A stretch of DNA of 58,499 nt from the NCBI GenBank assembly GCA_965369445.1, contig CBDUQU010000002.1, positions 1 through 58,499 of the forward strand, given 5' to 3'. The DNA comes from an uncultured bacterium (GTDB taxonomy: Bacteria; Zixibacteria; MSB-5A5; SM1-73). The notes under the pieces are model-generated. The model was not told the origin of the DNA, made no database searches, and saw only the letters and a program-made list of their open reading frames with translations. This document shows positions 591-10,833 of the stretch, in pieces. Each line of letters starts with the position of its first letter. Position 1 is the first letter of the stretch. Position numbers and translations under genes: made by a program.

Positions 591-684
591 GGAGAGGTGG
601 CCGAGTTGGCTGAAGGCAGCTGCCTGCTAAGCAGTTGTAGGGCTTATAACTCTACCCCGGGTTCGAATCCCGGCCTCTCCGCCA
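591..684 (+). tRNA. tRNA-Ser (anticodon GCT), class II with long variable arm, CCA encoded
   Basis: Hand-folded cloverleaf. Acceptor GGAGAGG/CCTCTCC, anticodon arm GCTGC-CTGCTAA-GCAGT, long variable arm, T-arm CCGGG-TTCGAAT-CCCGG, then G-CCA. Confidence 0.9.
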
Positions 685-724
685 TGAACCATACGATTCA
701 TGGCTCCGCTTTTTATTATCCGTC

Positions 725-982
725 GTGTACTACGTTTACATCCTTCAGATGAAGAAAACGGGACGCTATTATATAGGGCAAACTCGGAATCTGGCCAAGC
801 GTTTAGAGAAACACTCACTTGGCAAGACGAAATCGGTGAAGAATCGCGGTGAGTTTGCACTGGTGTATTCTGAGCAGTGTTTCTCTCGCGCACAAGCGAT
901 GAGACGAGAGAAACAGATAAAGGCATACAAAGGAGGCAATGCATTCAAGGAGCTGCTGGAAGGCTGGGATGCCAGCGCATGA
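725..982 (+). CDS. GIY-YIG nuclease family protein (UPF0213/YhbQ-like), copy 1
   Basis: YYVYILQMKKTGRYYIGQT...RLEKH...RREKQIK matches the GIY-(10-11 aa)-YIG, Arg and Glu core of small GIY-YIG proteins. GTG start at 725. Confidence 0.8.
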   Translation: MYYVYILQMKKTGRYYIGQTRNLAKRLEKHSLGKTKSVKNRGEFALVYSEQCFSRAQAMRREKQIKAYKGGNAFKELLEGWDASA

Positions 983-985
983 CAG

Positions 986-1212
986 GCGCTGAACTGGCGG
1001 AAGTCCCGCCTTTGGCGGGATAAGCAGTTGTAGGGCTTATAACTCTCGGGATGTATCAGGGGAACGAAGTCCTGATGTTATGATGCTCGGCTTCCGCATT
1101 CCCTAATGTCGAAGGATCTGAGATCCCGCCATTGGCGGGATACCCCGGGTTCCCTTCGGCTCGTCCTTCGGACTCTCGTTCAGGATCTAAGGACGAATCC
1201 CGGCCTCTCCGC
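986..1212 (+). repeat. Fragmented tRNA-Ser-derived pseudo-tRNA A
   Basis: 1021-1046 is an exact copy of tRNA nt 628-653, 1141-1152 of 653-664, and 1195-1212 of 665-682. A 42-nt insert (1153-1194) splits the T-loop. REP-like hairpins lie at 1004-1020 and 1124-1140. Confidence 0.65.
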
Positions 1213-1227
1213 TTTTTATTATCCGTC

Positions 1228-1644
1228 GTGTACTACGTTTACATCCTTCAAATAAAGAAAACCGGGCGCTATTACAAAGGGCAGACGAAGGACCTGACTA
1301 AGCGTCTGGAGAAACACTCTCGAGGCGAGACCAAGTCCGTTAAGAACCGTGGGAAGTTCGATGTGGTCTATGTGGAGGAATGCTCATCCCGATCTGAAGC
1401 CATGAGGCGAGAGAAGGAGATAAAGAGCTACAAGGGTGGTGAGGCACTCAAGCGTTTATTATCAGATTTCGCTGAGAAAGGGAGATCAGCCGTGGAGTTG
1501 GCTGAAGTCCCGCCTTTGGCGGGATACCCCGGGTTCCCTTCGGCTCGTCCAAAAGACTCGCTCCCTTCGGTCTGCCCGGACGCCCATACGGGCCCGTCTG
1601 GGGGCAAGCGTCTGCTTGAGCTCAGGGTCGAAGACAGGGTCTGA
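1228..1644 (+). CDS. GIY-YIG nuclease family protein, copy 2, with read-through C-terminal extension
   Basis: VYYVYILQIKKTGRYYKGQT...RREKEIKSYKGG is a paralog of copy 1. The GTG at 1228 lies in the same 44-nt block as the copy 1 start. There is no stop at the homologous position, so the ORF runs about 53 codons into pseudo-tRNA B. The 1132 start in the ORF track is probably artefactual. Confidence 0.7.
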   Translation: MYYVYILQIKKTGRYYKGQTKDLTKRLEKHSRGETKSVKNRGKFDVVYVEECSSRSEAMRREKEIKSYKGGEALKRLLSDFAEKGRSAVELAEVPPLAGYPGFPSARPKDSLPSVCPDAHTGPSGGKRLLELRVEDRV

Positions 1645-1664
1645 CGACGAATCCCGGCCTCTCC
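1481..1664 (+). repeat. tRNA-like pseudo-gene B, T-loop interrupted by a 112-nt insert
   Basis: GGAGA...AGTTGGCTGAAG (1496-1507 matches tRNA 604-615). Hairpin tcccgcctttggcggga at 1508-1524. taccccgggttc at 1525-1536 matches tRNA 653-664. Insert at 1537-1648. gaatcccggcctctcc at 1649-1664. Confidence 0.6.
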
Positions 1665-1698: not shown

Positions 1699-2505
1699 AT
1701 GATAAGAGGAATCCAAGTAGTCGACACAAACGCAGACAATATCTGCGACTACCCACTGTGTGGCTACAAGAACATCAAGCAGGAGGGCTACAAGCGGAAG
1801 ACCGATTGGCTAAAGCGACGCTTCAAAGAGGGGATGAAGGTCAAAGTCCTGCATTCACCTCAGGATGGATCTGTGGGGATGATTGAATACGTTCCGGGGG
1901 AATATACCTGGCGAGCGGTAGATGCAGAAGGATACATGCTGATTCACTGTATATTCATAATGCCCAAGAAACTCAAGGGCAAAGGCTATGGGTCACTTAT
2001 GGTGGAAGAGTGCGTGAAGGATACTAAAAGGCAGAAAATGCATGGCGTAGCGGTCGTTACTCGCAAAGGCACCTGGATGGCGGGTAAGGAACTGTTTCTC
2101 AAAAACGGTTTTGAAGTTGTTGACACAGCGCCCCCCGACTTTGAGTTGCTGGTCAAGAAATTCAAGAAGAGCGCACCCTTGCCCAAGTTCAAAGGTGACT
2201 GGGATAAGAGACTGGGCAAATATGATAGAGGTCTGACTATCATTCGATCGGATCAATGTCCTTATGTCGCAAAAGCGTTCAGGGAAATCAGCCAGACAGC
2301 GCAGAGCACCTATGGTATTAAGCCGAGAGTAATCGAGCTAAGAAGCAGCAAGGAAGCACAACGCGCCCCTTCGCCATTCGGTGTCTTCAGCATCATTCTT
2401 GATGGCAAGCTGGTGGCCGATCATCCCATAAGCAACACCAGGTTTGTGAACATCATGAATAAGGAACAGGAATTCCTTAAGAAGTGGGAACAGCGGCACT
2501 CTTGA
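1699..2505 (+). CDS. GNAT family N-acetyltransferase with YoaP-like C-terminal domain
   Basis: The acetyl-CoA-binding region KGKGYGSLMVEECV...KNGFEVV is followed by the C-terminal SDQCPYV...FGVFSIILDGKLV pattern seen in YoaP-like domains. Confidence 0.7.
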   Translation: MIRGIQVVDTNADNICDYPLCGYKNIKQEGYKRKTDWLKRRFKEGMKVKVLHSPQDGSVGMIEYVPGEYTWRAVDAEGYMLIHCIFIMPKKLKGKGYGSLMVEECVKDTKRQKMHGVAVVTRKGTWMAGKELFLKNGFEVVDTAPPDFELLVKKFKKSAPLPKFKGDWDKRLGKYDRGLTIIRSDQCPYVAKAFREISQTAQSTYGIKPRVIELRSSKEAQRAPSPFGVFSIILDGKLVADHPISNTRFVNIMNKEQEFLKKWEQRHS

Positions 2506-2531
2506 GATGACTGAGTCGGCCAAAACGATGG

Positions 2532-2930
2532 GTGGGGGTGGACATGATAGTCAAGTATGCCGTAGCATGGCTCCTGATGCCAATCATCGGGATCATAAAC
2601 GGGACAATTCGACAATACGCATACAGTAACGCTCTGGGCGAGCTGCGTGCACACCAGGTCTCCACGGTGACCGGGATCTTCCTCTTCGGTCTCTATATCT
2701 GGGCGCTAACCCTTCTTTGGAAAATACGTTCATCTGCCGAGGCTATCGCAATTGGCCTCATATGGTTGACTCTAACCATAGCATTTGAGTTTCTGTTCGG
2801 GCATTACGTTATGAAGCATTCGTGGAGCAGACTGTTTCACGATTACAACCTCTTCGAAGGCAGGCTGTGGGTGCTGGTGCTGCTCTGGGTCACATTAGCA
2901 CCCTACGTCTTCCACAAACTCTCCAACTGA
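2532..2930 (+). CDS. Small integral membrane protein, function unknown
   Basis: Four hydrophobic segments. No motif recognised. The start may be the ATG at 2544 (MIVKYAV). Confidence 0.5.
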   Translation: MGVDMIVKYAVAWLLMPIIGIINGTIRQYAYSNALGELRAHQVSTVTGIFLFGLYIWALTLLWKIRSSAEAIAIGLIWLTLTIAFEFLFGHYVMKHSWSRLFHDYNLFEGRLWVLVLLWVTLAPYVFHKLSN

Positions 2931-2979
2931 TCGGAGTGCTAACCGGTCTCCCGAAACCAAGAACTGCAAAGGTGTAAAA

Positions 2980-3678
2980 GTGAACAACACCGATTTTGAG
3001 AGATCTTGGCTGTCGAAGCTCTCCTCCTGTCTGGACAAGATTGTAGGAGAAGATACAAGAAAGAAAATACTGCAGGGCAGCGAGAAGCTTACATCGGATT
3101 CTCCTTCGGATGAGATTATTGAGTGGACCAGGCAGGCCATGGATCGCCTGGATGCACTGGTGGATGAAGAAAAACGAATAGAGATAATGACCGGGTGTGC
3201 CTGTCGGTATCCAGAATCTGAGCTGCGCGAAATCAGGGATGGATATGTCAAGACAAAAGACATTGGCGCGGGTCATAGGATGCTAAGAGACAGGTTCCTT
3301 TCGTTTTTGAAGAACACACTGGGGCTCGAAGACGACTCAGTCGAAGACATCATGAGTCGGGGATGGGGCTTGGCCGGAGTTAGGAAGGGAAACACGATCA
3401 TTGCTACCAAGATGCCCAAAAGCGGGAACCTTGAGGAGTATCTGAAAGAGACGGATCCGAAAAAGCGGCGGGCAATCTATTGTCATTGCCCCAGGATCCG
3501 AGAGGCCATAGGATCGAACACGATAATCTCTCCCACCTACTGCTACTGCGGGGCTGGTTTCTACAAAGGGATATGGGAATACATATTGCAGCAACCTGTA
3601 AAGGTCGAGTTGCTGGAATCAGTCTTGCAGGGAGACGAGGTTTGTAAAGTAGCGATCCATCTGCCGCAGGCGAGGTGA
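2980..3678 (+). CDS. Hypothetical Cys-containing protein
   Basis: 232-aa ORF with coding-like composition and a C-terminal CHCP...YCYCGAGFY cysteine pattern. Family not recognised with certainty. Confidence 0.5.
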   Translation: MNNTDFERSWLSKLSSCLDKIVGEDTRKKILQGSEKLTSDSPSDEIIEWTRQAMDRLDALVDEEKRIEIMTGCACRYPESELREIRDGYVKTKDIGAGHRMLRDRFLSFLKNTLGLEDDSVEDIMSRGWGLAGVRKGNTIIATKMPKSGNLEEYLKETDPKKRRAIYCHCPRIREAIGSNTIISPTYCYCGAGFYKGIWEYILQQPVKVELLESVLQGDEVCKVAIHLPQAR

Positions 3679-3685
3679 GGCGATT

Positions 3686-4264
3686 GTGAAGATGAGTAAA
3701 ACGCTATACGTGACCAATCGGGATGATTGGCGGGCATGGCTGAGGAAAAACCACGGTACCCAAAAAGAAGTGTGGTTGATCTATTACAAGAAACACACCG
3801 GCAAGCCGAGAATCCCATATGATGATGCGGTTGAAGAGGCGTTGTGCTACGGGTGGATAGACAGCACGGTGAAAAGGATTGACGACGAGAAATATGCCCA
3901 GAAGTTCACGCCCCGCAATGAGAAGAGCAACTGGTCCGAGTTGAATAAGAAAAGAGCTAGGAAGATGATTAAGATAGGGAGAATGACTGAAGTAGGCCTG
4001 GCCAAGTTCAAACAAGCAGGGAGGCAGAGAAACGAAAAGGCTATAAGCGAACCACCCAAGAAAAGGCTTATTACTCCTCCAGATCTGAAGAAAGCATTAT
4101 CGGCGAACAAAAAAGCTCTAAGGAATTTCAAGAACTTCGCCCCCAGCTACCGGAGATCGTATATCGCCTGGATAGCTGATGCAAAGCGGAAAGAAACCCG
4201 AGAGAAAAGAATCAAGCAGACCGTCAAATGGTCTGCGGGGAACAAAAAGCCGGGCATGATGTGA
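3686..4264 (+). CDS. YdeI/OmpD-associated family protein
   Basis: WRAWLRKNH...EVWLIYYKK...AVEEALCYGWIDS and the C-terminal YIAWI..AKR.ETR.KRI are characteristic of the YdeI/OmpD-associated family. Confidence 0.7.
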   Translation: MKMSKTLYVTNRDDWRAWLRKNHGTQKEVWLIYYKKHTGKPRIPYDDAVEEALCYGWIDSTVKRIDDEKYAQKFTPRNEKSNWSELNKKRARKMIKIGRMTEVGLAKFKQAGRQRNEKAISEPPKKRLITPPDLKKALSANKKALRNFKNFAPSYRRSYIAWIADAKRKETREKRIKQTVKWSAGNKKPGMM

Positions 4265-4321
4265 CTGTGGGTCAGGAAGCCCCCGTGCCCAGACGGGCTC
4301 GTCCGAGCTCCTGACACTAGG

Positions 4322-4690
4322 CTAACCGAAGTGCTTCATTATCCTTCCTCGATCTTCATTCTCTTTGTCAGCCTTGTAGTAGATCTCGATTAGGACAACC
4401 TTGTCCTCTTTTTCGTAATAGCCATAGATCAGCCTGATGCCGGATTTAGCGCCTTTCCCCTTGAGTGAGCGGCAGGCGAACTTGAGTACCTTGTATACCT
4501 TTGGGGTTTCTATGTCCAAATCGGAGATTCGGACCGTTCCACCGGTTTCCTTTCCTAATTTGTGATAGAGCTTCAACTGGTTTCCGATACAAATATCCAG
4601 ATCATCTTCAAGGGTCTTGTATCGTTTCAGAAGTCTCTTCATGTCCCGCTCGAATTCAGGGAGACGCAAGATCTCACTAAATATCTTCAT
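4322..4690 (-). CDS. RelE/ParE-superfamily-like toxin (putative PanT)
   Basis: 122 aa with a helical N-terminus followed by GIRLIYGYYEKEDKVVLIEIYYKADKEN, a RelE/ParE-type beta-sheet signature. It overlaps the upstream antitoxin gene by 14 nt. Confidence 0.55.
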   Translation of the reverse strand: MKIFSEILRLPEFERDMKRLLKRYKTLEDDLDICIGNQLKLYHKLGKETGGTVRISDLDIETPKVYKVLKFACRSLKGKGAKSGIRLIYGYYEKEDKVVLIEIYYKADKENEDRGRIMKHFG

Positions 4691-5471
4691 CGTATTGTCT
4701 CACCGAATACGGGGCAGTCCTGTAGAAGACGGATTCGTACTCTATGATACCATCATCTTCTGCCGTCAGCCAGGGAACGTCATTGTGGGAGTACTCGCTT
4801 ATCTGCTTGGCACTCATATCCGAAAGCCGGCTCAGCACGTTGTCCATGACTTCCTTTCCTTCCGCCGTGAACTCAGAGAGGTGAGGATCTCTAAGTGGCA
4901 TATACTTCCTTTTCGGGAAACCAAAGTGCTCGCTCTGCACTGGTTCGATCTGGTCATCTTCGATCATCTTCTCAACTATCTTCTGGAACTCCATTGGCGT
5001 GGGACCATATTTGTTCTTCTGATAGGTGGCGCCAATCAGCTGCTCCTCATACAGTTCATAGTAATCGAAATCGATGAAATAGAGGAGCTTGTAGATTACC
5101 GTTTCTCCCACGTTGGGCTTTGAGCCAACCCTGCCGAGGATGTAAAGCAGGACTTCCTTGAACTTCCTGAGGTTCTTCTGAGGAACATTGATTCTGATTT
5201 GGGCCTTGGTCTTTTTCCTTTGCTTTCCTTCCTGCAGGACGACTTCAGGCGCCTTCTCGAATTCCAGCAAGCTCCCAATTGAGACGCCGAATATCTCTGA
5301 GAGGTTTTTCAACTCAGCAAGGGTGATCTTCCTTTTTCCTGCCTCCATCTGGGAAATCGTCGCGTGAGCTGCAATTCCCAGCCTCTTAGCTAGTTTCTCC
5401 TGTGTGATTCCCATTCGTTGTCTGAGTTGCTTTATCCTCTGTCCGAGTTTTTTCTCGAACTGACTCATCAT
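4677..5471 (-). CDS. XRE-family HTH fused to Panacea (DUF4065/SocA-like) antitoxin domain
   Basis: N-terminal LGQRIKQLRQRMGITQEKLAKRLG...ISQMEAGKR (Cro/C1 HTH). C-terminal KLLYFIDFDYYELYEEQLIGATYQKNKYGPTP is typical of DUF4065. Confidence 0.75.
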   Translation of the reverse strand: MMSQFEKKLGQRIKQLRQRMGITQEKLAKRLGIAAHATISQMEAGKRKITLAELKNLSEIFGVSIGSLLEFEKAPEVVLQEGKQRKKTKAQIRINVPQKNLRKFKEVLLYILGRVGSKPNVGETVIYKLLYFIDFDYYELYEEQLIGATYQKNKYGPTPMEFQKIVEKMIEDDQIEPVQSEHFGFPKRKYMPLRDPHLSEFTAEGKEVMDNVLSRLSDMSAKQISEYSHNDVPWLTAEDDGIIEYESVFYRTAPYSVRQYDEDI

Positions 5472-5922
5472 TGACTCCTTTTCTCATACCCCTTCATCAG
5501 TACACATCATGTAACGAAATCTATCGCAGGGTTGTTTGAAAAGATTACATCGGTTTGTTGCACTCGGCTCACGAATCAAACGAGATAGCACGTCAGGTGC
5601 CCTGTCCTCTTGGGCCTTCACTGCGTAGTCCCCCTACGTAAGCCTTATGCGTTTTGACCGTATTGACGAATTTCTCTTCGCTTTTATGTTGACTAAACAG
5701 GATAGCACGCATCGACCGATTTTTTCCCTTGACACGTGATTCGGCTTCGGCTATTCTGGCGGAGAGGGATAACAAGGAACAACACCAGGATTCTTTATAG
5801 ATCGGAAGGCTGCTTCCGTGTTTAGCAACTCGCGTTTGGTTGAGTTAGGGTTCTAACAGAAAGGAGGAGGCTCAGAGACCGTACTGACTTCGTCCACTAC
5901 CTATGAAAGGAGGTGAAGTAAG

Positions 5923-6360
5923 ATGAAAAAGACAACGGCTTTGATAATGATGATTTTGTTTCTGGGGCTGATTGTGTATGCTTGTGCCCAGAAAGAAGAG
6001 GAAAATGAGAAGGTAGTTGATCCCGCTGAGGAGTTGGCCAAGTCCGTTGAAAACGGAAAGATGCTGTTCAGCGATACGACCCTGGGAACAAGCGGGATGA
6101 CCTGCAACTCCTGCCACATGGAGGGAGGAACCAAGGCGGGCAAGATGGGTGACATGGTCGTTCCTGCCTGGGATAACCTGGCAGCAAAATATCCCAAGTA
6201 TTTCGGAATGGCCAAAAAGGTCATGACCTTAGACCAGGTGAACAACTGGTGCATAGTGAATCCACTTAAAGGGAAACCACTGGCCTGGGACGACCAGAGG
6301 CTTACCGACCTGACCGCTTACGTAGCTTCCGTCAAGAAGGTGGAGAAGAAGGAGAAATAA
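5923..6360 (+). CDS. Monoheme c-type cytochrome lipoprotein
   Basis: Signal peptide with lipobox-like VYAC and a single CNSCH heme-binding motif. Strong SD (aaaggagg) upstream. Confidence 0.7.
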   Translation: MKKTTALIMMILFLGLIVYACAQKEEENEKVVDPAEELAKSVENGKMLFSDTTLGTSGMTCNSCHMEGGTKAGKMGDMVVPAWDNLAAKYPKYFGMAKKVMTLDQVNNWCIVNPLKGKPLAWDDQRLTDLTAYVASVKKVEKKEK

Positions 6361-6541
6361 AGCCTACGCACGGATAAAGAATTGCGCGGCGGCGGGGACA
6401 GCTTCCTTACTAAAGGAACCCCCGCCGTGAATCACCGCGCGCTGTCCTGAGGCATCCTTTCGTCCAGGGAAAGACCATTCATCCGGGAGATCGCTACGCC
6501 TCAACGAGGAAGCTGGGGGCTGAAAGTAAAAGGATTAACAT

Positions 6542-7249
6542 ATGGCGTTTCATACCAAGTCCATACTTGCGATCTTTTTTCTTGTAACAGGATTGGTGGC
6601 AGTCATCTGCATGTTGACCCTGATGGGCAGAACGGAGAGAAAAGTCAGTGCAACGTTTTTGCGAAGAATGCACAAGGGTGCGGGAACCCTCTTCGCAGTG
6701 ATGTTCCTGGTGATAAGCTACTTCTGCCTGCAATACGTGAAAACGGCCGGCGATGGGCTCTCCGCCAGGGCCGTCTTTCACGGCGTGCTGTCGCTGTCGC
6801 TTTTCTTCGTCCTGGCGCTCAAGCTATCAATAGCGCGATTCTATAAACAGTTCATCAGATACGTGCCCGGACTGGGTATGACGGCTTTTGGACTTGCCTT
6901 TATCGTGTTCCTTACGTCTGCGGGTTATTTCTTCCTGGTGACAGAAAAGACCACGGTCGCAGGAGAAGCGGTCTCCGAGGTCAGCGGACCCTCGAGCGTT
7001 GGGAGAGGTCAGGGGCTATTCGACAACCAGTGTTCCTTCTGCCACTTCGCCGACAGGACCGATTCAAAGATGGGTCCAGGTTTGAAGGGAGTTCTAAGGG
7101 GAGAGACGTTGCCGGTTAGCGGAAAACCCGCCACGCCGGAAAACGTCACCCGGCAGCTTCTGAATCCCTATAAGAACATGCCATCCTTTAAGACTACTCT
7201 TTCCGAGCAGGAGATCAAAGACCTGGTGGCTTATCTGACGATGCTTTGA
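6542..7249 (+). CDS. Membrane protein (about 4-5 TM) with C-terminal class I cytochrome c domain
   Basis: Hydrophobic N-terminal 140 aa, then GQGLFDNQCSFCH...MPSF...DLVAYL (CxxCH plus a distal Met region). Confidence 0.7.
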   Translation: MAFHTKSILAIFFLVTGLVAVICMLTLMGRTERKVSATFLRRMHKGAGTLFAVMFLVISYFCLQYVKTAGDGLSARAVFHGVLSLSLFFVLALKLSIARFYKQFIRYVPGLGMTAFGLAFIVFLTSAGYFFLVTEKTTVAGEAVSEVSGPSSVGRGQGLFDNQCSFCHFADRTDSKMGPGLKGVLRGETLPVSGKPATPENVTRQLLNPYKNMPSFKTTLSEQEIKDLVAYLTML

Positions 7250-7522
7250 ACCTGGTGCATGTACTGCACCGTGAACCCACCTATCTTTTGCTGGTGCGAG
7301 TGCTGCGGCTGGTGACGTATGTAGGCACCTGAACTTGTAAGAAGGAGCACAGAGAAAACGGGCGAGCAGGTTTTCTTGCTCGCCCGGTGGCTCTTTCTCT
7401 CAGTTCGCCGACAACGGACGCCTTGCCCGTGACGAACCTAGAAAGAGGTTGAGACGATCAGAGTTGATCCAAATCAGGTCAAGTTCTATTTCGACAAAAA
7501 CATCTGGTCTGACATCTTAAGT

Positions 7523-8395
7523 ATGACAGACACGGAGCTGTCGGATTTTCGGGCGTTAATAGAACCGCTGAGGAGGCAGTCAAGAATCGGAATCTGGTAT
7601 TCGCCGATTGGCGTGCTTGAACTAGTGAAGCAGGTGTCGCTAGAGAAGTATTACGATGAGTGCCAGCGTGAGATTAGGTTCGCCTCTGAGATGACTGACA
7701 AGAATCTCCTTGACCATCCGTGGGATCACATCCGCCGTATCGCATACTATAAGATGGGTAAGGCATTCCACGAACCCGATACAGGTTTCCTGAATTTGTG
7801 CCGAGAAATCGCGGTACTTCCGTACAGCCAGATGAAGCACAAGATCGCTAGATTGAGAAAGGTCGCCAGATGGGAGAAGAACTGGGCGCAGGACTTGAGA
7901 CAAGTCGCGACAGATATGAGAAGAGATTTCGGGCTAGAGCCGAGAGACACAAGCCTCAGGGTAGAGACGGATGAGTTTCGAAGCGTTCGCGGCATCCTGT
8001 GGCGAAGAATGAAAAACTGGCGCTATTTTTGTCAGCACTTCAGATTGCCCAGCGAACTACAGGATTTGGCGTTCGAAGATGCAATTCGTCTCTTTCCTTC
8101 ATTCTTATATTGGGTGGACTACCGCATCACGTATGAGAATAAAGTCATTTATGACAACAAGAAGCCGAAGCCCTCAGATTATCTCGACTGGGAGCAACTT
8201 GTCTATCTCAACATAATGGACTACCTCGTCACCAATGATAAAGGACTGAGGAGAATACTGCGGGAATCAATAAACCCAGACCTGGAGCAAGTGACCTTAG
8301 GGTTCGATGAATTCGTTGGGTGTCTCCGAGGGCAGCTTCCGCCTCGAAGGGCTCCGGATTCGGCCGATCGGGTGTGGAAGGACACTAGGATCTGA
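7523..8395 (+). CDS. Hypothetical protein (orphan, 290 aa)
   Basis: Long ORF with coding-like composition and no confidently recognised domain. The C-terminal IMDYLVTNDKGLRRIL faintly resembles the last acidic motif of PIN-like nucleases. Confidence 0.5.
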   Translation: MTDTELSDFRALIEPLRRQSRIGIWYSPIGVLELVKQVSLEKYYDECQREIRFASEMTDKNLLDHPWDHIRRIAYYKMGKAFHEPDTGFLNLCREIAVLPYSQMKHKIARLRKVARWEKNWAQDLRQVATDMRRDFGLEPRDTSLRVETDEFRSVRGILWRRMKNWRYFCQHFRLPSELQDLAFEDAIRLFPSFLYWVDYRITYENKVIYDNKKPKPSDYLDWEQLVYLNIMDYLVTNDKGLRRILRESINPDLEQVTLGFDEFVGCLRGQLPPRRAPDSADRVWKDTRI

Positions 8396-8433
8396 GGCAC
8401 TCTGTGTTGGGGGAGTGATAAGGACTCCGCGTA

Positions 8434-9102
8434 TTACATCTCTTCTCTAGCCTTGAGACTCTCCTCGACTATCTTCACTCCGGAGGAGGTGCCAATCCTA
8501 TTGGCGCCGGCATGAATTAGCTTCATAGCGGTCGCGTACTCGCGAATTCCTCCGGAGGCTTTGACTCCCATACTTTCGCCTGCAATCTTTCTTAAGAGCT
8601 TCACGTCTTCTACGGTGGCGCCGCCGTATCCAAATCCGGTGGAGGTCTTGACGAAATCGGCTTCGCAGGCCTTGACTATCTCGGTGGCTTTCACTTTCTC
8701 CTCGTTGGTCAACACGCCTGCCTCGATTATTACCTTCAGTACTTTATCGTTCCCAATTGCATTTCGGACATCCTTGATCTCTTTCTCCACCAGCATAAGA
8801 TTGCCGGTTTTGAAGGCGCCGATATTCATCACCATATCGATCTCATCAGCGCCATCGCGAATGCCGATCTCCGCCTCTTTAGCTTTGATCTCGGGCTTGC
8901 TGGCCCCCAACGGGAAGCCGGAAACGGTGCACACCATGACCCCGGTGCCTTCAAGCTGATCTTTGCAGTACCTCACCCAAACCGGATTTACCACTATGGT
9001 AATGAAGCCATGCTCCCTGCCCTGCACGCAGAGCTGTTCCACCTGCTGCCTGACAACGTCCGGCTTGAGAAGAGACTGATCGATCATCCTGGCTATGTCC
9101 AT
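8434..9102 (-). CDS. deoC: Deoxyribose-phosphate aldolase
   Basis: IDQSLLKPD, VKTSTGF (Schiff-base Lys) and VKASGGIR motifs. The ATG at 9102, preceded by gagagg, is preferred over the TTG at 9138. Confidence 0.9.
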   Translation of the reverse strand: MDIARMIDQSLLKPDVVRQQVEQLCVQGREHGFITIVVNPVWVRYCKDQLEGTGVMVCTVSGFPLGASKPEIKAKEAEIGIRDGADEIDMVMNIGAFKTGNLMLVEKEIKDVRNAIGNDKVLKVIIEAGVLTNEEKVKATEIVKACEADFVKTSTGFGYGGATVEDVKLLRKIAGESMGVKASGGIREYATAMKLIHAGANRIGTSSGVKIVEESLKAREEM

Positions 9103-9197
9103 CTGAACCTCTCTGTTTAAGTCCGCCGTCCGCCGCAAAATCCCTGAGGTTTGTTAAATCCGTTTAATCCGCTCGATCCGCTGACCGTCTTATCTGT

Positions 9198-9581
9198 TCA
9201 CCCTTTGTCAAAAGCCTTAGGCAGTAGCTCCTTCAGAGTATACCTCTCCACTTTCCCCTTGAGATTGGCACAAACGATCTTCAGGTCCTTCACAAACTCG
9301 GAGAGAACCTGCCTGCAGGCTCCGCACGGGGTCACCGGGGGATTCCTATCCGTCACCACCGCTATCTTGGCGAAATTCCTATCTCCTTTGTTCACCGCCT
9401 TGAATACTGCAATCCTCTCGGCACAGACGGTCAACCCAAAGGTGGAATTCTCCACGTTTGCGCCGGTGTATACCTTGCCGCTTTTGGTCAACAGCGCGGC
9501 ACCGACCTTGAAGTTGGAGTAGGGAGCATACGCCTTAAGTCTGGCCCTTTTAGCTTTTTCGATTAACTCTTTTTCTGTCAT
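9198..9581 (-). CDS. cdd: Cytidine deaminase
   Basis: CAERIAVFKAV and PCGACRQVL zinc-binding motifs. True start is MTEKELIEKA at 9581. The 9797 start in the ORF track would overlap deoB. Confidence 0.9.
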   Translation of the reverse strand: MTEKELIEKAKRARLKAYAPYSNFKVGAALLTKSGKVYTGANVENSTFGLTVCAERIAVFKAVNKGDRNFAKIAVVTDRNPPVTPCGACRQVLSEFVKDLKIVCANLKGKVERYTLKELLPKAFDKG

Positions 9582-9660
9582 GATTCCCAATCTGTGAACG
9601 CGAATTTGTAGCCGCCCCGCCTTTGGCGGGGCGCTCTCTCTCGCACCCTGAAGGGTACGG

Positions 9661-10833
9661 CTACCATCTGATCTCCTCAAGGAAGCTCTTCCCGCTTCCC
9701 GTTCCTTTGATACCGAAAATCTCGGCAATGGTTGCGCCCACATCGGCGAAACTCTCTCGCACTCCCAGATTCTTGCCCTTTGCGATCGACTCGCCACACA
9801 CCAGCAGGGGCACGTATTCTCGGGAATGATCGGTGCTGGGAGTGGTGGGATCGCATCCGTGATCTGCGGTGATGATTAGGATATCCTGTTTTTGCAGAAG
9901 CTCCATCACCTCAGGCAATCTCCTGTCGAATTCTTCCAGGCCGTGGGCAAACGCGCGTGGATCGTTGCGGTGCCCCCACAGCATGTCGAAATCGACTAAG
10001 TTTATGAAAATAAGCCCTTCTTTGAATTCCTGTACCGCCTCAACCAGCCTATCCATACCATCTGAGTTATTCTTCGAATGGATGCTAAAAGTTAAGCCCT
10101 TTCCGGCGAAGAGATCTTTGATCTTACCCAAGCCGATGACCGGCAGGTGATTTCTTTTTAGAATGTCCAAGGCCGTGTCGGATGGCGGAGGCAAAGAGAA
10201 GTCCTTTCTTCGCTCGGTCCTTTTGAAAGAGCCCGGCTTTCCCACGAAGGGGCGCGCAATTACCCTGACCACAGCGTGTTCTCCCACCAGTATGTTTCTG
10301 GCGGTCCTGCACATCTGGTACAACCTGTCTACCGGGATGATCTCTTCATGAGCGGCACTCTGGAAGACGCTGTCGGCTGAAGTGTAGACTATGGGCTTGC
10401 CCGTTCTGACGTGCTCTTCCCCAAGCTCCTTAATGATCTCGGTCCCGGAAGCGGGCTTGTTCCCCAGAATCTTCTTGCTAATGGCTCGTTCAAACGGCTG
10501 GATTACCTCCGGCGGAAAACCTTGGGGATAGACCGGATGAGGTTTCTCCGTGATCAAGCCCATGATCTCCCAGTGCCCGCTGCTGCTGTCCTTTCCTACG
10601 GAAAGCTCAGCCATCTTCCCAAAATTGGCCAGAGCTGAAGCGTTGGGACTGACCCCAAGAATGGTATCGATGTTTCCCAGGCCCAGCTTCTCCAGGTTGG
10701 GCAGCTTCAGTCCCCCCACTGCTCTTGCAGTATTGACTATAGTATTTGACCCCTCGTCGTTATAGAGATGCGCATCGGGAAGTTCGCCGATGCCGCAGGC
10801 GTCCAGGATGATCAGGATAACTCGCTTGCTCAT
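9661..10833 (-). CDS. deoB: Phosphopentomutase
   Basis: [17 protein letters not shown] and [10 protein letters not shown] motifs, length 390 aa. Forms a deoB-cdd-deoC operon on the minus strand. Confidence 0.9.

Follow-up and report, generated by a model that had tools for sequence, protein, structure and literature searches.

The stretch of DNA analysed here, called the window below, comprises 58,499 nucleotides (nt), positions 1 to 58,499 of contig CBDUQU010000002.1, from an uncultured bacterium of the Zixibacteria. Near its start, an intact transfer RNA (tRNA) gene, tRNA-Ser(GCT), is followed on the same strand by two small GIY-YIG genes, A1 and A2. Behind each of them lies an incomplete copy of the tRNA, a pseudo-tRNA, in which a GC-rich hairpin takes the place of tRNA arms. 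A GIY-YIG gene with its hairpin and tRNA pieces is called a cassette. Piece 'a' is the short tRNA segment just 5' of the replaced arm, which is overlapped by the 3' end of the open reading frame (ORF), and piece 'b' is the remainder of the tRNA to its 3' end, after the hairpin.

A tRNA gene followed by two GIY-YIG genes and two pseudo-tRNAs

A previous description made from the letters alone, referred to as the sequence-only reading, had reported a tRNA followed by two units of GIY-YIG gene plus pseudo-tRNA. ARAGORN, Pfam and repeat comparison showed that this layout is correct, and all coordinates and identities of the reported repeats were reproduced base for base by a script. The parts of the array are listed here; loci from other genomes are cited by their labels (L013 and so on).

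591-684, + strand: intact tRNA-Ser(GCT) with encoded CCA, head of the array (ARAGORN; Rfam tRNA, 58.8 bits at 591-681)
682-703, + strand: 22-nt hairpin starting at the CCA (CCATGAA..TTCATGG), then a run of T (sequence; terminator scan at 681-704)
704-747, + strand: 44-nt block of tRNA 3' strand end (CTCCG), spacer and first 23 nt of ORF A1
725-982, + strand: GIY-YIG gene A1, 85 amino acids (aa), GTG start (Pfam PF01541, E 1.8e-15)
991-1003, + strand: degenerate copy of the tRNA D-loop segment (gaactggcggaag versus GAGTTGGCTGAAG), the 5' piece 'a' of pseudo-tRNA 1
1004-1020, + strand: hairpin H1, TCCCGCCTTTGGCGGGA, in place of tRNA positions 26-37
1021-1046, + strand: exact copy of tRNA positions 38-63 (26 of 26 nt versus 628-653)
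1047-1123, + strand: 77-nt insert in the composite pseudo-tRNA, hairpin-capable, kept in L013, L015, L016 and L022
1124-1140, + strand: hairpin H2, TCCCGCCATTGGCGGGA
1141-1152, + strand: copy of tRNA positions 63-74 (TACCCCGGGTTC), i.e. variable-arm end, 5' T stem and start of the T loop
1153-1193, + strand: T-loop insert of about 42 nt, homologue of the tail of a type B cassette (see below)
1194-1211, + strand: copy of T loop, 3' T stem and 3' acceptor strand (CGAATCCCGGCCTCTCCG), piece 'b', joined straight to the next unit
1228-1644, + strand: GIY-YIG gene A2, core of about 82 aa, GTG start, 138-aa ORF (Pfam E 4.2e-14)
1495-1507, + strand: exact copy of the D-loop segment GAGTTGGCTGAAG (tRNA positions 13-25), piece 'a' of pseudo-tRNA 2, inside ORF A2 (repeat D6, 13 of 13; flank mapping)
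1508-1524, + strand: hairpin H3, TCCCGCCTTTGGCGGGA, in place of tRNA positions 26-62 (anticodon and variable arms)
1525-1536, + strand: copy of TACCCCGGGTTC (tRNA positions 63-74)
1537-1647, + strand: T-loop insert of about 112 nt, homologue of a type B tail with an extra internal insertion
1648-1664, + strand: last copy of T loop and 3' acceptor strand, end of the array

Hairpin H1 substitutes for the 3' D stem, the 5' anticodon stem and most of the anticodon loop, and the exact copy behind it contains the TAA of the anticodon loop, the 3' anticodon stem and the variable arm. Scripted checks placed TACCCCGGGTTC at 653, 1141 and 1525, CGAATCCCGGCCTCTCC at 664, 1194 and 1648, and the hairpin TCCCGCC(T/A)TTGGCGGGA at 1004, 1124 and 1508. 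The inserts after GGGTTC measured 42 nt and 112 nt, and 704-747 was identical to 1207-1250 at 44 of 44 positions; this block forms the head-to-tail junction of the unit. Three exact copies of the hairpin 17-mer compare with 0.45 expected when three mismatches are allowed, and nine matches to its 15-mer with 0.23 expected by chance. The assignment of 991-1003 is based on repeat family D3 and on alignment with L013, L015, L016 and L022. H2, the version with an ATT loop, stands at the equivalent place in L013, L015 and L016, with ATC in L022, and the neighbouring 77-nt insert shows few compensatory pairs among only five sequences. Together with the intact tRNA at 591-684, the 'b' segments at 1021-1046, 1194-1211 and 1648-1664 constitute a direct repeat of the tRNA 3' part with a regenerated tRNA. 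The position of tRNA-Ser(GCT) 3' of a methyltransferase gene is kept in all syntenic loci. A YoaP-type GNAT gene at 1699 follows the array, and L015 and L016 have the same array end with this gene downstream.

Two diverged proteins of a minimal GIY-YIG branch

The Pfam GIY-YIG scores of A1 and A2 were 57.4 and 53.0 bits, respectively, against a cut-off of 22.6. A profile search of structures returned UPF0213 (1zg2, E 4.8e-15; 1ywl) and Slx1 as the closest matches, which places both proteins in a minimal, Slx1/UPF0213-like branch of the GIY-YIG superfamily (PF01541). Proteins of the family have 79-85 aa and consist of the catalytic domain alone, without a DNA-binding module. In an alignment of 57 sequences, Y16, G18, R26 and E62 were invariant and Y5 and H30 nearly so; from knowledge of the superfamily, we take the invariant Tyr, Arg and Glu columns to be catalytic. 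The motif GxTKSxKNRGxF is conserved specifically in this subfamily. A2 has YKG where YIG would be expected. The catalytic core of A1 is complete; compared with the canonical 99-aa form, a frameshift alters its C-terminal tail and brings an earlier stop.

The two ORF regions (704-949 and 1207-1452) were 76% identical in the repeat search. The proportions of synonymous and nonsynonymous differences between A1 and A2 were 0.745 (pS) and 0.17 (pN), and in the protein tree A1 grouped with the L001/L016 type and A2 with the L017/L024/L021 type. A1 and A2 are thus old paralogues and not recent duplicates. Because their synonymous sites are saturated, the 44-nt identical junction block points to recent conversion or recombination and not to recent duplication, an indirect hint that co-conversion may occur. 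A1 is 88% identical to protein P0001 of L001, with ratios of nonsynonymous to synonymous substitution rates (dN/dS) of 0.09-0.22 versus relatives, and A2 gave a dN/dS of about 0.05 versus L009. With values of 0.05-0.22, the protein is under purifying selection.

The canonical ORF of the clade has 99 aa and ends with ..ELAEVPPxAG*. This tail is the translated D-loop piece GAGTTGGCTGAAG plus the hairpin GTCCCGCCnnnGGCGGGA plus TAA; the TAA corresponds to U36-A37-A38 of the copied anticodon loop, so the stop lies directly 3' of the hairpin. The string was considered as a protein motif and rejected, since it is a translation of D loop and hairpin and is missing where the hairpin lies outside the ORF. 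The sequence-only reading had noticed that copy 2 lacks a stop at the homologous position, and indeed ORF2 continues for 53 codons beyond the stop position of ORF1. In A2, the TAA is lost through the junction of the hairpin to position 63 (TACCCC), and the frame therefore stays open across pseudo-tRNA 2.

Annotation is affected in several ways. Gene callers gave over-long family members (P0008, P0014, P0022, P0039 and many database entries). C-terminal over-calls translate the hairpin and the tRNA copy (..AEVPPLAG, ..ISSCKAYNSRDV..), and N-terminal over-calls add 20-60 aa by reading through an upstream tRNA or pseudo-tRNA. Hairpin-bearing copies were called tRNA-Pro or tRNA-Ser by ARAGORN and Rfam (L060, L077, L094).

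The module recurs beside tRNA genes in many bacterial lineages

Relatives of the 85-aa protein comprised 7,154 representatives at 50% identity (E<=1e-10). One genome per species was used to collect 80 loci, which were read as loci and not as whole genomes. They span Zixibacteria, several lineages of the Candidate Phyla Radiation (CPR)/Patescibacteria, Omnitrophota, genomes labelled Planctomycetes, Bacteroidales, Chitinophagales, Marinimicrobia, Calditrichota and others. A same-strand tRNA gene accompanied the ORF at a distance of up to about 120 nt in 72 of these 80 loci, and the remaining eight were cut by a contig end or had intervening pseudo-tRNA repeats. Across the surveyed loci, 118 of 121 tRNAs were on the ORF strand. 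A partial or whole copy of the neighbouring tRNA, with one arm swapped for the hairpin, adjoins the gene. Homologous GIY-YIG genes elsewhere, which the sequence-only reading had proposed to compare, are thus almost always tied to a tRNA and its fragments.

Two layouts were found. In the first, the real tRNA is upstream, the ORF starts 0-60 nt behind it and the pseudo-tRNA lies downstream; in CPR genomes with this layout, the ATG of the ORF overlaps the discriminator base. In the second, the real tRNA is downstream with the stop codon of the ORF about 15 nt inside it, and an upstream pseudo-tRNA ends in the T loop just before the ATG. One locus may carry one to four tandem copies; the arrays of Bacteroidales contain up to four 360-nt units (L060, L094, L175). 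Protein clades track tRNA type and layout in the tree, and one CPR clade is found with Gly, Thr and Asp tRNAs, which indicates that retargeting has happened.

Among phages, plasmids and viral contigs, one weak plasmid match (37% identity) was the only relative detected. A phage-borne homing endonuclease was rejected as an explanation, as there were no phage or viral-contig relatives.

Several taxonomic labels are suspect (L017-L022, L033, L038, L040; 'binchicken'/TPA): 'Ignavibacteria' labels are attached to contigs syntenic with Zixibacteria, and GIY-YIG proteins labelled 'Gammaproteobacteria' cluster with CPR proteins and are found at the same tRNAs as these. Claims of cross-phylum transfer were not rested on doubtful labels.

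A conserved hairpin replaces different tRNA arms

The hairpin has the consensus YCCCGCC-loop-GGCGGGR, with a fixed stem and a free loop; the window form, YCCCGCC-N3-GGCGGGR, has 17 nt. At 61 of the 80 loci, CCCGC..GCGGG was present no farther than 200 nt from the ORF; its density there was 31 times that of the rest of the loci, and most of the remaining loci had variant or compound hairpins. Only 17 hairpins were counted in 300 kb of flanking sequence (of the loci, not of whole genomes). An identical copy of the window 17-mer is present in the Microgenomates locus L039. Among the copies with the 6-base-pair core CCCGCC/GGCGGG, the seventh pair was T-A in 44, C-G in 41 and unpaired in two, and loops had 2-8 nt and 43 different sequences. 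The covariation of the seventh pair together with the free loops argues that a folded stem is conserved and not a spaced site on double-stranded DNA. The hairpin is unlikely to be a dimer site in double-stranded DNA, given spacers of 2-8 nt.

The sequence-only reading had the hairpin in place of the anticodon arm. This was confirmed for the window; as a local trait it did not hold, because the swap is a family-wide hallmark that affects various arms:

D arm: junction 10|26-28, in all tRNA-Pro loci with both flanks mapped
Anticodon arm: junction 25-28|43-48, in Thr, Tyr, Lys, Asp and Glu loci
T arm: junction 49|65, in L027 and in the last units of L056 and L094
Variable arm: L024
Part of the anticodon arm, or anticodon plus variable arms: junction 25|38 or 25|63, in Zixibacteria

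Two or three hairpins per pseudo-tRNA occur in L037, L042, L056 and L094. The constant feature is a hairpin with at least about 10 nt of tRNA-identical flank on each side.

Some pseudo-tRNAs differ from the resident tRNA. The variable arm of the pseudo-tRNA is unlike that of the resident tRNA in L102 and L107, and in L047 and L175 the T stem differs by compensatory pairs. The pseudo-tRNA therefore travels with the cassette, and some pseudo-tRNAs are of foreign origin.

The 15-nt hairpin core reported by the sequence-only reading at 9616-9630 is there, and its sequence was verified. Its membership of the locus was not upheld: it has other flanks, and no tRNA-derived sequence adjoins it. This hairpin was set aside as probably unrelated. 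The core is contained in GCCCCGCCTTTGGCGGGGC at 9610-9636, in the interval that separates cdd (9198-9581) from deoB (9661-10833), both genes being encoded on the - strand. Only about 1.5 kb separate the cassette from the deo operon in L009-type relatives, and a distant kinship of the 9616 hairpin is conceivable.

Presence, absence and copy number at the tRNA-Ser site

The closest homologues of the array were found in Candidatus Zixiibacteriota genomes and metagenomes behind an ArsM-like methyltransferase gene and tRNA-Ser(GCT). The first four entries below are loci of this kind; those from L097 onwards were retrieved with the methyltransferase as query:

L009 type: a single cassette followed by deoC-cdd-deoB
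L013: two cassettes followed by lexA and dinB
L001: one type A cassette plus type B (107 aa), then the YoaP-GNAT gene of the window
L015, L016: one cassette plus the composite pseudo-tRNA as in window 983-1212, then YoaP
L097: empty site, with an OPT-like transporter ORF directly after the tRNA
L102: tRNA, 34 nt, solo pseudo-tRNA with hairpin, without ORF
L096, L100, L109: upstream 5' half plus hairpin, real tRNA, type B alone
L107: three tandem 107-nt copies of upstream region plus 5' half plus hairpin
L095: methyltransferase 98% identical to that of the window; hairpin-bearing copy where the window has the real tRNA

At this conserved methyltransferase/tRNA-Ser site, the nuclease gene is thus polymorphic for presence and absence, with zero, one or two cassettes or type B only. 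An ordinary decaying tRNA-Ser array in sister genomes would have spoken against the sequence-only reading; what they contain is an empty site, a solo pseudo-tRNA, or one or two cassettes. This polymorphism and the family-wide linkage to tRNAs support its proposal that GIY-YIG cassettes inserted serially at a tRNA gene.

In the hairpin-bearing copy of L095, the 5' half is intact and 39 nt are inserted in the D loop. The contigs of L006 and L008 open with ORF end, 'a', hairpin, 'b', spacer and ORF start, i.e. with a head-to-tail junction, whereas the single-copy contigs L001-L005 and also L007, from the same study and with the same protein, carry the real tRNA in that place. The composite pseudo-tRNA is common to five independent assemblies. 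Degraded copies are present in L107 and L023.

No integrase was found in the cassettes, in window 1699-9138 or in the flanks of the relatives; the remark of the sequence-only reading that an integrase is missing accordingly extends from the window to the loci of its relatives.

A second cassette type and the surroundings of the array

Type B cassettes in L001, L023 and L100 have the order tRNA or pseudo-tRNA, CCA-hairpin, leader and a 107-aa UPF0213-like GIY-YIG ORF. The last codons of this ORF, ..(N/S)GFPS, correspond to GGGTTCCCTTCG and are followed by a tail of 40-75 nt and then CGAATCCCGGCCTCTCCG. Counterparts of the 42-nt insert of the window were found at the end of or after the 107-aa ORF (L001 3659-3712, L023 3219-3295, L100 4598-4695), and the 112-nt insert matched L023 3226-3290, L100 4605-4690 and L001 3765-3838. 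Both inserts are therefore type B tails without an ORF, remnants of lost units.

The hairpin at 682-703 of the window, which is bracketed by CTCCG direct repeats (677-681, 704-708), looks like a terminator. Variants of it, CCATTGTC..GACAATGG and CCATTGCC..GGCAATGG, occur in L001, L023 and L100. The CCA-hairpins form a family (CCA-TTGYC..GRCAA-TGG) that begins exactly at the encoded CCA, and their stems covary between loci; they lie at L001 3361-3380 and 3720-3739, L023 2851-2871 and L100 4263-4281, usually 5' of type B cassettes.

Distant type B proteins are also encoded beside tRNA-like genes on the same strand, namely tRNA-Ser(TGA) in L177, transfer-messenger RNA (tmRNA) in L178 and tRNA-Trp in L179. 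The gene lies directly downstream of the tmRNA gene in L178 (413-1173) and between rpmG and the tRNA-Trp of the secE-nusG cluster in L179 (715-1296); in L177 (471-1240) the conserved tail GGGTTTCCTTCG... is tandemly repeated. A third GIY-YIG subtype, with 41% identity to type A and 35% to type B, is located directly 3' of the syntenic tRNA-Ser(GCT) in L108 (1579-1967).

Repeated TTGAC(C/T)A-like boxes at 545-590, directly 5' of the tRNA (attgaccattcaccattgactactgaccgaattt), are kept in L097 and L100 and have been duplicated along with the 5' half and the hairpin in L107. These boxes possibly represent the tRNA promoter, or else an upstream element from which the cassettes are driven as well. 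A promoter scan between the tRNA and the ORFs yielded nothing convincing. Rfam scans of the first 3 kb of the window (E<=10) and of ten related loci (gathering thresholds) returned the tRNA family alone, and a PADLOC scan for defence systems gave insignificant partial matches only.

Behind the array, 1699-8433 encodes the YoaP-type GNAT protein, a DUF6144 protein, an OmdA/YdeI protein, two cytochrome c proteins and unknown ORFs, without an integrase. This island is missing from L009-type relatives, in which deoC comes straight after the cassette. It includes a gene for a helix-turn-helix and Panacea (SocA-like) antitoxin-type protein (4680-5471, - strand) and a small overlapping ORF just downstream (4325-4690), a possible toxin-antitoxin pair of the PanA type (4325-5471) by sequence.

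Probable selfish cassettes inside tRNA transcription units

The explanation that we lean towards, without great certainty, is that these units are selfish mini-cassettes inside tRNA transcription units, which spread or amplify through a tRNA-derived homology segment. A cassette of about 330-500 base pairs (bp) consists of three parts: a minimal GIY-YIG gene with a core of 80-85 aa, piece 'a', and the hairpin with piece 'b' behind it. If 'b', or a longer 'a', recombined with a resident tRNA gene, the unit would be inserted and an intact tRNA left, so that insertion would be nearly neutral. The position of the real tRNA, next to whichever homology piece is longer ('b' with about 49 nt when the tRNA is upstream, 'a' with about 28 nt when it is downstream), fits insertion through the tRNA segment. 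The tRNA homology would also permit head-to-tail amplification, loss of the ORF to give a solo pseudo-tRNA, and exchange of cassettes between strains.

We infer that the nuclease binds or cuts the hairpin as a folded stem-loop in single-stranded DNA or in RNA, and that this would trigger the recombination events. Of the partners of the protein, the hairpin alone stays constant from one tRNA to another, which makes it the likeliest, putative nuclease site. The nearest relatives of the protein include the structure-specific nuclease Slx1. Expression of the cassette probably rides on the tRNA promoter by co-transcription with the tRNA.

Several points weigh against this explanation. The protein is a bare catalytic domain, and its recognition of the hairpin is a prediction from sequence. 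A nuclease that cuts tRNA genes would also target the intact tRNA next door. Pieces 'a' of 10-14 nt are too short for ordinary RecA recombination. The arm swaps are precise and of equal length, sometimes with several per copy. Simple homologous insertion would not be expected to produce them, and a structure-directed step or RNA-level selection may be involved. The model leaves unaccounted for both the invariant stem and the route by which an arm is exchanged for the hairpin in a new tRNA copy. Within Zixibacteria, the tRNA-Ser cassette seems to be old, judged from its saturated synonymous sites, and its mobility may be slow. Some labels of metagenome-assembled genomes are unreliable, which weakens claims of transfer across phyla. 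Finally, repeat assemblies from metagenomes can be chimeric, yet independent ones agree (L013/L017/L103; L015/L016).

Less probable, and put forward tentatively, is a new kind of structure-directed system made up of the hairpin and the 80-aa nuclease. On one view, the nuclease would act on stem-loops of tRNA genes and exchange whole arms for the hairpin, a form of hairpin homing that operates on DNA secondary structure. On another, the pseudo-tRNA would serve as an RNA cofactor, with its tRNA-identical flanks programming the minimal nuclease.

Somewhat more doubtful is the main rival, close to the alternative named by the sequence-only reading (a tRNA-like RNA coupled to the nuclease), that the pseudo-tRNA is a functional RNA, with the hairpin on a tRNA-like scaffold bound by the GIY-YIG protein; it could be an inhibitor as in type III toxin-antitoxin systems, a regulator, or a guide that pairs with the tRNA gene through its identical flanks. 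An exact-boundary swap of an arm for a hairpin of equal length (17 nt) preserves the geometry of the cloverleaf, the pseudo-tRNAs of Bacteroidota are recognised as tRNA (Rfam 45.6 bits and an ARAGORN call), and pseudo-tRNA 2 of the window forms a cloverleaf in its minimum-free-energy structure. RNA hairpins that bind proteins also typically have a fixed stem and a free loop, the element overlaps the ORF at its 3' end in the manner of an omega RNA, and one pseudo-tRNA can hold several hairpins. However, many lineages have no full cloverleaf: the copies of CPR and Zixibacteria lack the 5' acceptor strand, and pseudo-copies upstream of the ORF end in the T loop. A universal tRNA-like RNA fold was rejected for this reason. 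In addition, the folding z-score of the window copy was merely -1.9, and a guide that matches the adjoining intact tRNA gene would target its own locus.

That the proteins are housekeeping enzymes of tRNA or DNA metabolism, co-transcribed with tRNA genes and flanked by products of local duplication, is improbable. Linkage to a same-strand tRNA across many phyla and strong purifying selection would both be expected of such enzymes. Yet close relatives have an empty site or a solo pseudo-tRNA, the copy number per locus varies from one to four, the tRNA used differs by lineage, many copies are degraded, and the conserved hairpin has no place in this model.

It is still less probable that the fragments are scars of classical integrative elements, i.e. 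attR-type remnants of tyrosine-integrase islands that carried GIY-YIG genes as cargo. Like att repeats, the fragments do have their starts within the anticodon loop (position 38) or within the T loop and extend to the 3' end of the tRNA, and the region downstream of the array (1699-8433) varies between relatives. Such islands would, however, measure just 0.35-0.5 kb, the fragments include a 5' tRNA piece and a conserved hairpin, both foreign to att sites, and the module recurs in many phyla with replacement of the D arm or the T arm. As the search for an integrase described above was negative for window 1699-9138, the cassettes and the relatives, att scars were rejected as the main explanation.

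Decay is known from tandem tRNA arrays, and metagenomic repeats are difficult to assemble, but a plain decaying tRNA-Ser array or an assembly artefact that lies beside GIY-YIG genes by chance is hardly credible, as it is contradicted by the coincidence of fragment boundaries with ORF ends and hairpin in about 100 independent loci, by the five assemblies that share the composite pseudo-tRNA and by the 31-fold enrichment of the hairpin near the ORF.

Comparison with known systems

Seg proteins are free-standing GIY-YIG homing endonucleases of T-even phages, and SegB of phage T4 lies in the T4 tRNA gene cluster. The cassettes resemble the Seg family in that a GIY-YIG gene is located between or beside conserved genes, including tRNAs, in the presence/absence polymorphism, and in that spread is thought to occur by break-induced recombination. 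In contrast, Seg proteins have more than 200 aa with DNA-binding domains and reside in phages, whereas the proteins described here are bare cores of 80-85 aa encoded in chromosomes, and Seg loci lack the arm-swapped tRNA copy with a conserved hairpin that accompanies each unit here. One report credits a Seg-type GIY-YIG nuclease with driving segmental amplification of the tRNA region (PMC13096335).

With elements that integrate at tRNA sites, the cassettes share the intact tRNA with a downstream 3' duplicate and the serial arrays at one tRNA. They differ in the lack of an integrase, in the unit size of 0.3-0.5 kb and in the duplicate, which adds a 5' tRNA piece and an arm-replacing hairpin. 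In its behaviour, the element comes closest to a cross between a free-standing homing endonuclease gene and an element that integrates at tRNA sites; without a DNA-binding module, phage residence and an integrase, it fails defining features of both classes.

A GC-rich hairpin as a cis site beside an enzyme gene, with putative recognition of the folded single strand, is reminiscent of REP/RAYT, IS200/IS605 and integron attC sites, and promoterless units arrayed in one orientation recall integron cassettes. The enzyme of those systems is an HUH protein or a tyrosine recombinase and here a GIY-YIG hydrolase, and unlike REP elements, the hairpins sit in tRNA copies and are not dispersed in the available locus sequence. 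A structured non-coding element at the end of a small nuclease gene, perhaps in tandem, is also known from the omega RNAs of TnpB/IscB and from ToxI of type III systems. In contrast to these, no RuvC/HNH or ToxN-type protein is encoded here, the tRNA-derived flanks match the adjoining gene, and the likeness is one of DNA architecture only.

In fold family and size, the proteins resemble Slx1-like and UPF0213 proteins (1zg2 and 1ywl being the closest solved structures by sequence profile), and they differ by their own motif and their own genomic context. Those Slx1-like and UPF0213 proteins are described as the minimal stand-alone variant of GIY-YIG by Dunin-Horkawicz et al. 2006 (PMC1564403), a survey that makes no mention of a tRNA link, a pseudo-tRNA or a hairpin. 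A paper on Patescibacteria only lists the GIY-YIG domain among transferred genes. Neither the open full-text literature, with subscription journals outside the search, nor Rfam yielded an account of a link between minimal GIY-YIG genes and tRNA genes.

Implications

We regard the cassettes as nuclease-encoding selfish DNA, with a real chance that their mechanism is of a new kind. A large family of more than 7,000 clusters at 50% identity, annotated just as "GIY-YIG nuclease family protein" or "putative endonuclease", would gain a context and a role. With about 330 bp for an 80-aa nuclease, a hairpin and a borrowed tRNA piece, the cassettes are possibly among the smallest autonomous selfish DNA units of bacteria. 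They may explain pseudo-tRNAs and duplicated tRNA genes in genomes of CPR, Bacteroidota, Omnitrophota and Zixibacteria, as well as odd D arms in tRNA calls and ORF calls that are too long because they run through tRNA sequence. The exact swap of an arm for the hairpin and the invariant stem suggest that a folded nucleic acid is recognised by a bare GIY-YIG core, which is, to our knowledge, the smallest nuclease domain. If the tRNA-derived flanks specify the target, the system would be reprogrammable in principle, and the tentative reading as a new kind of system would, if true, mean programmable targeting specified by nucleic acid on a nuclease domain of this size.

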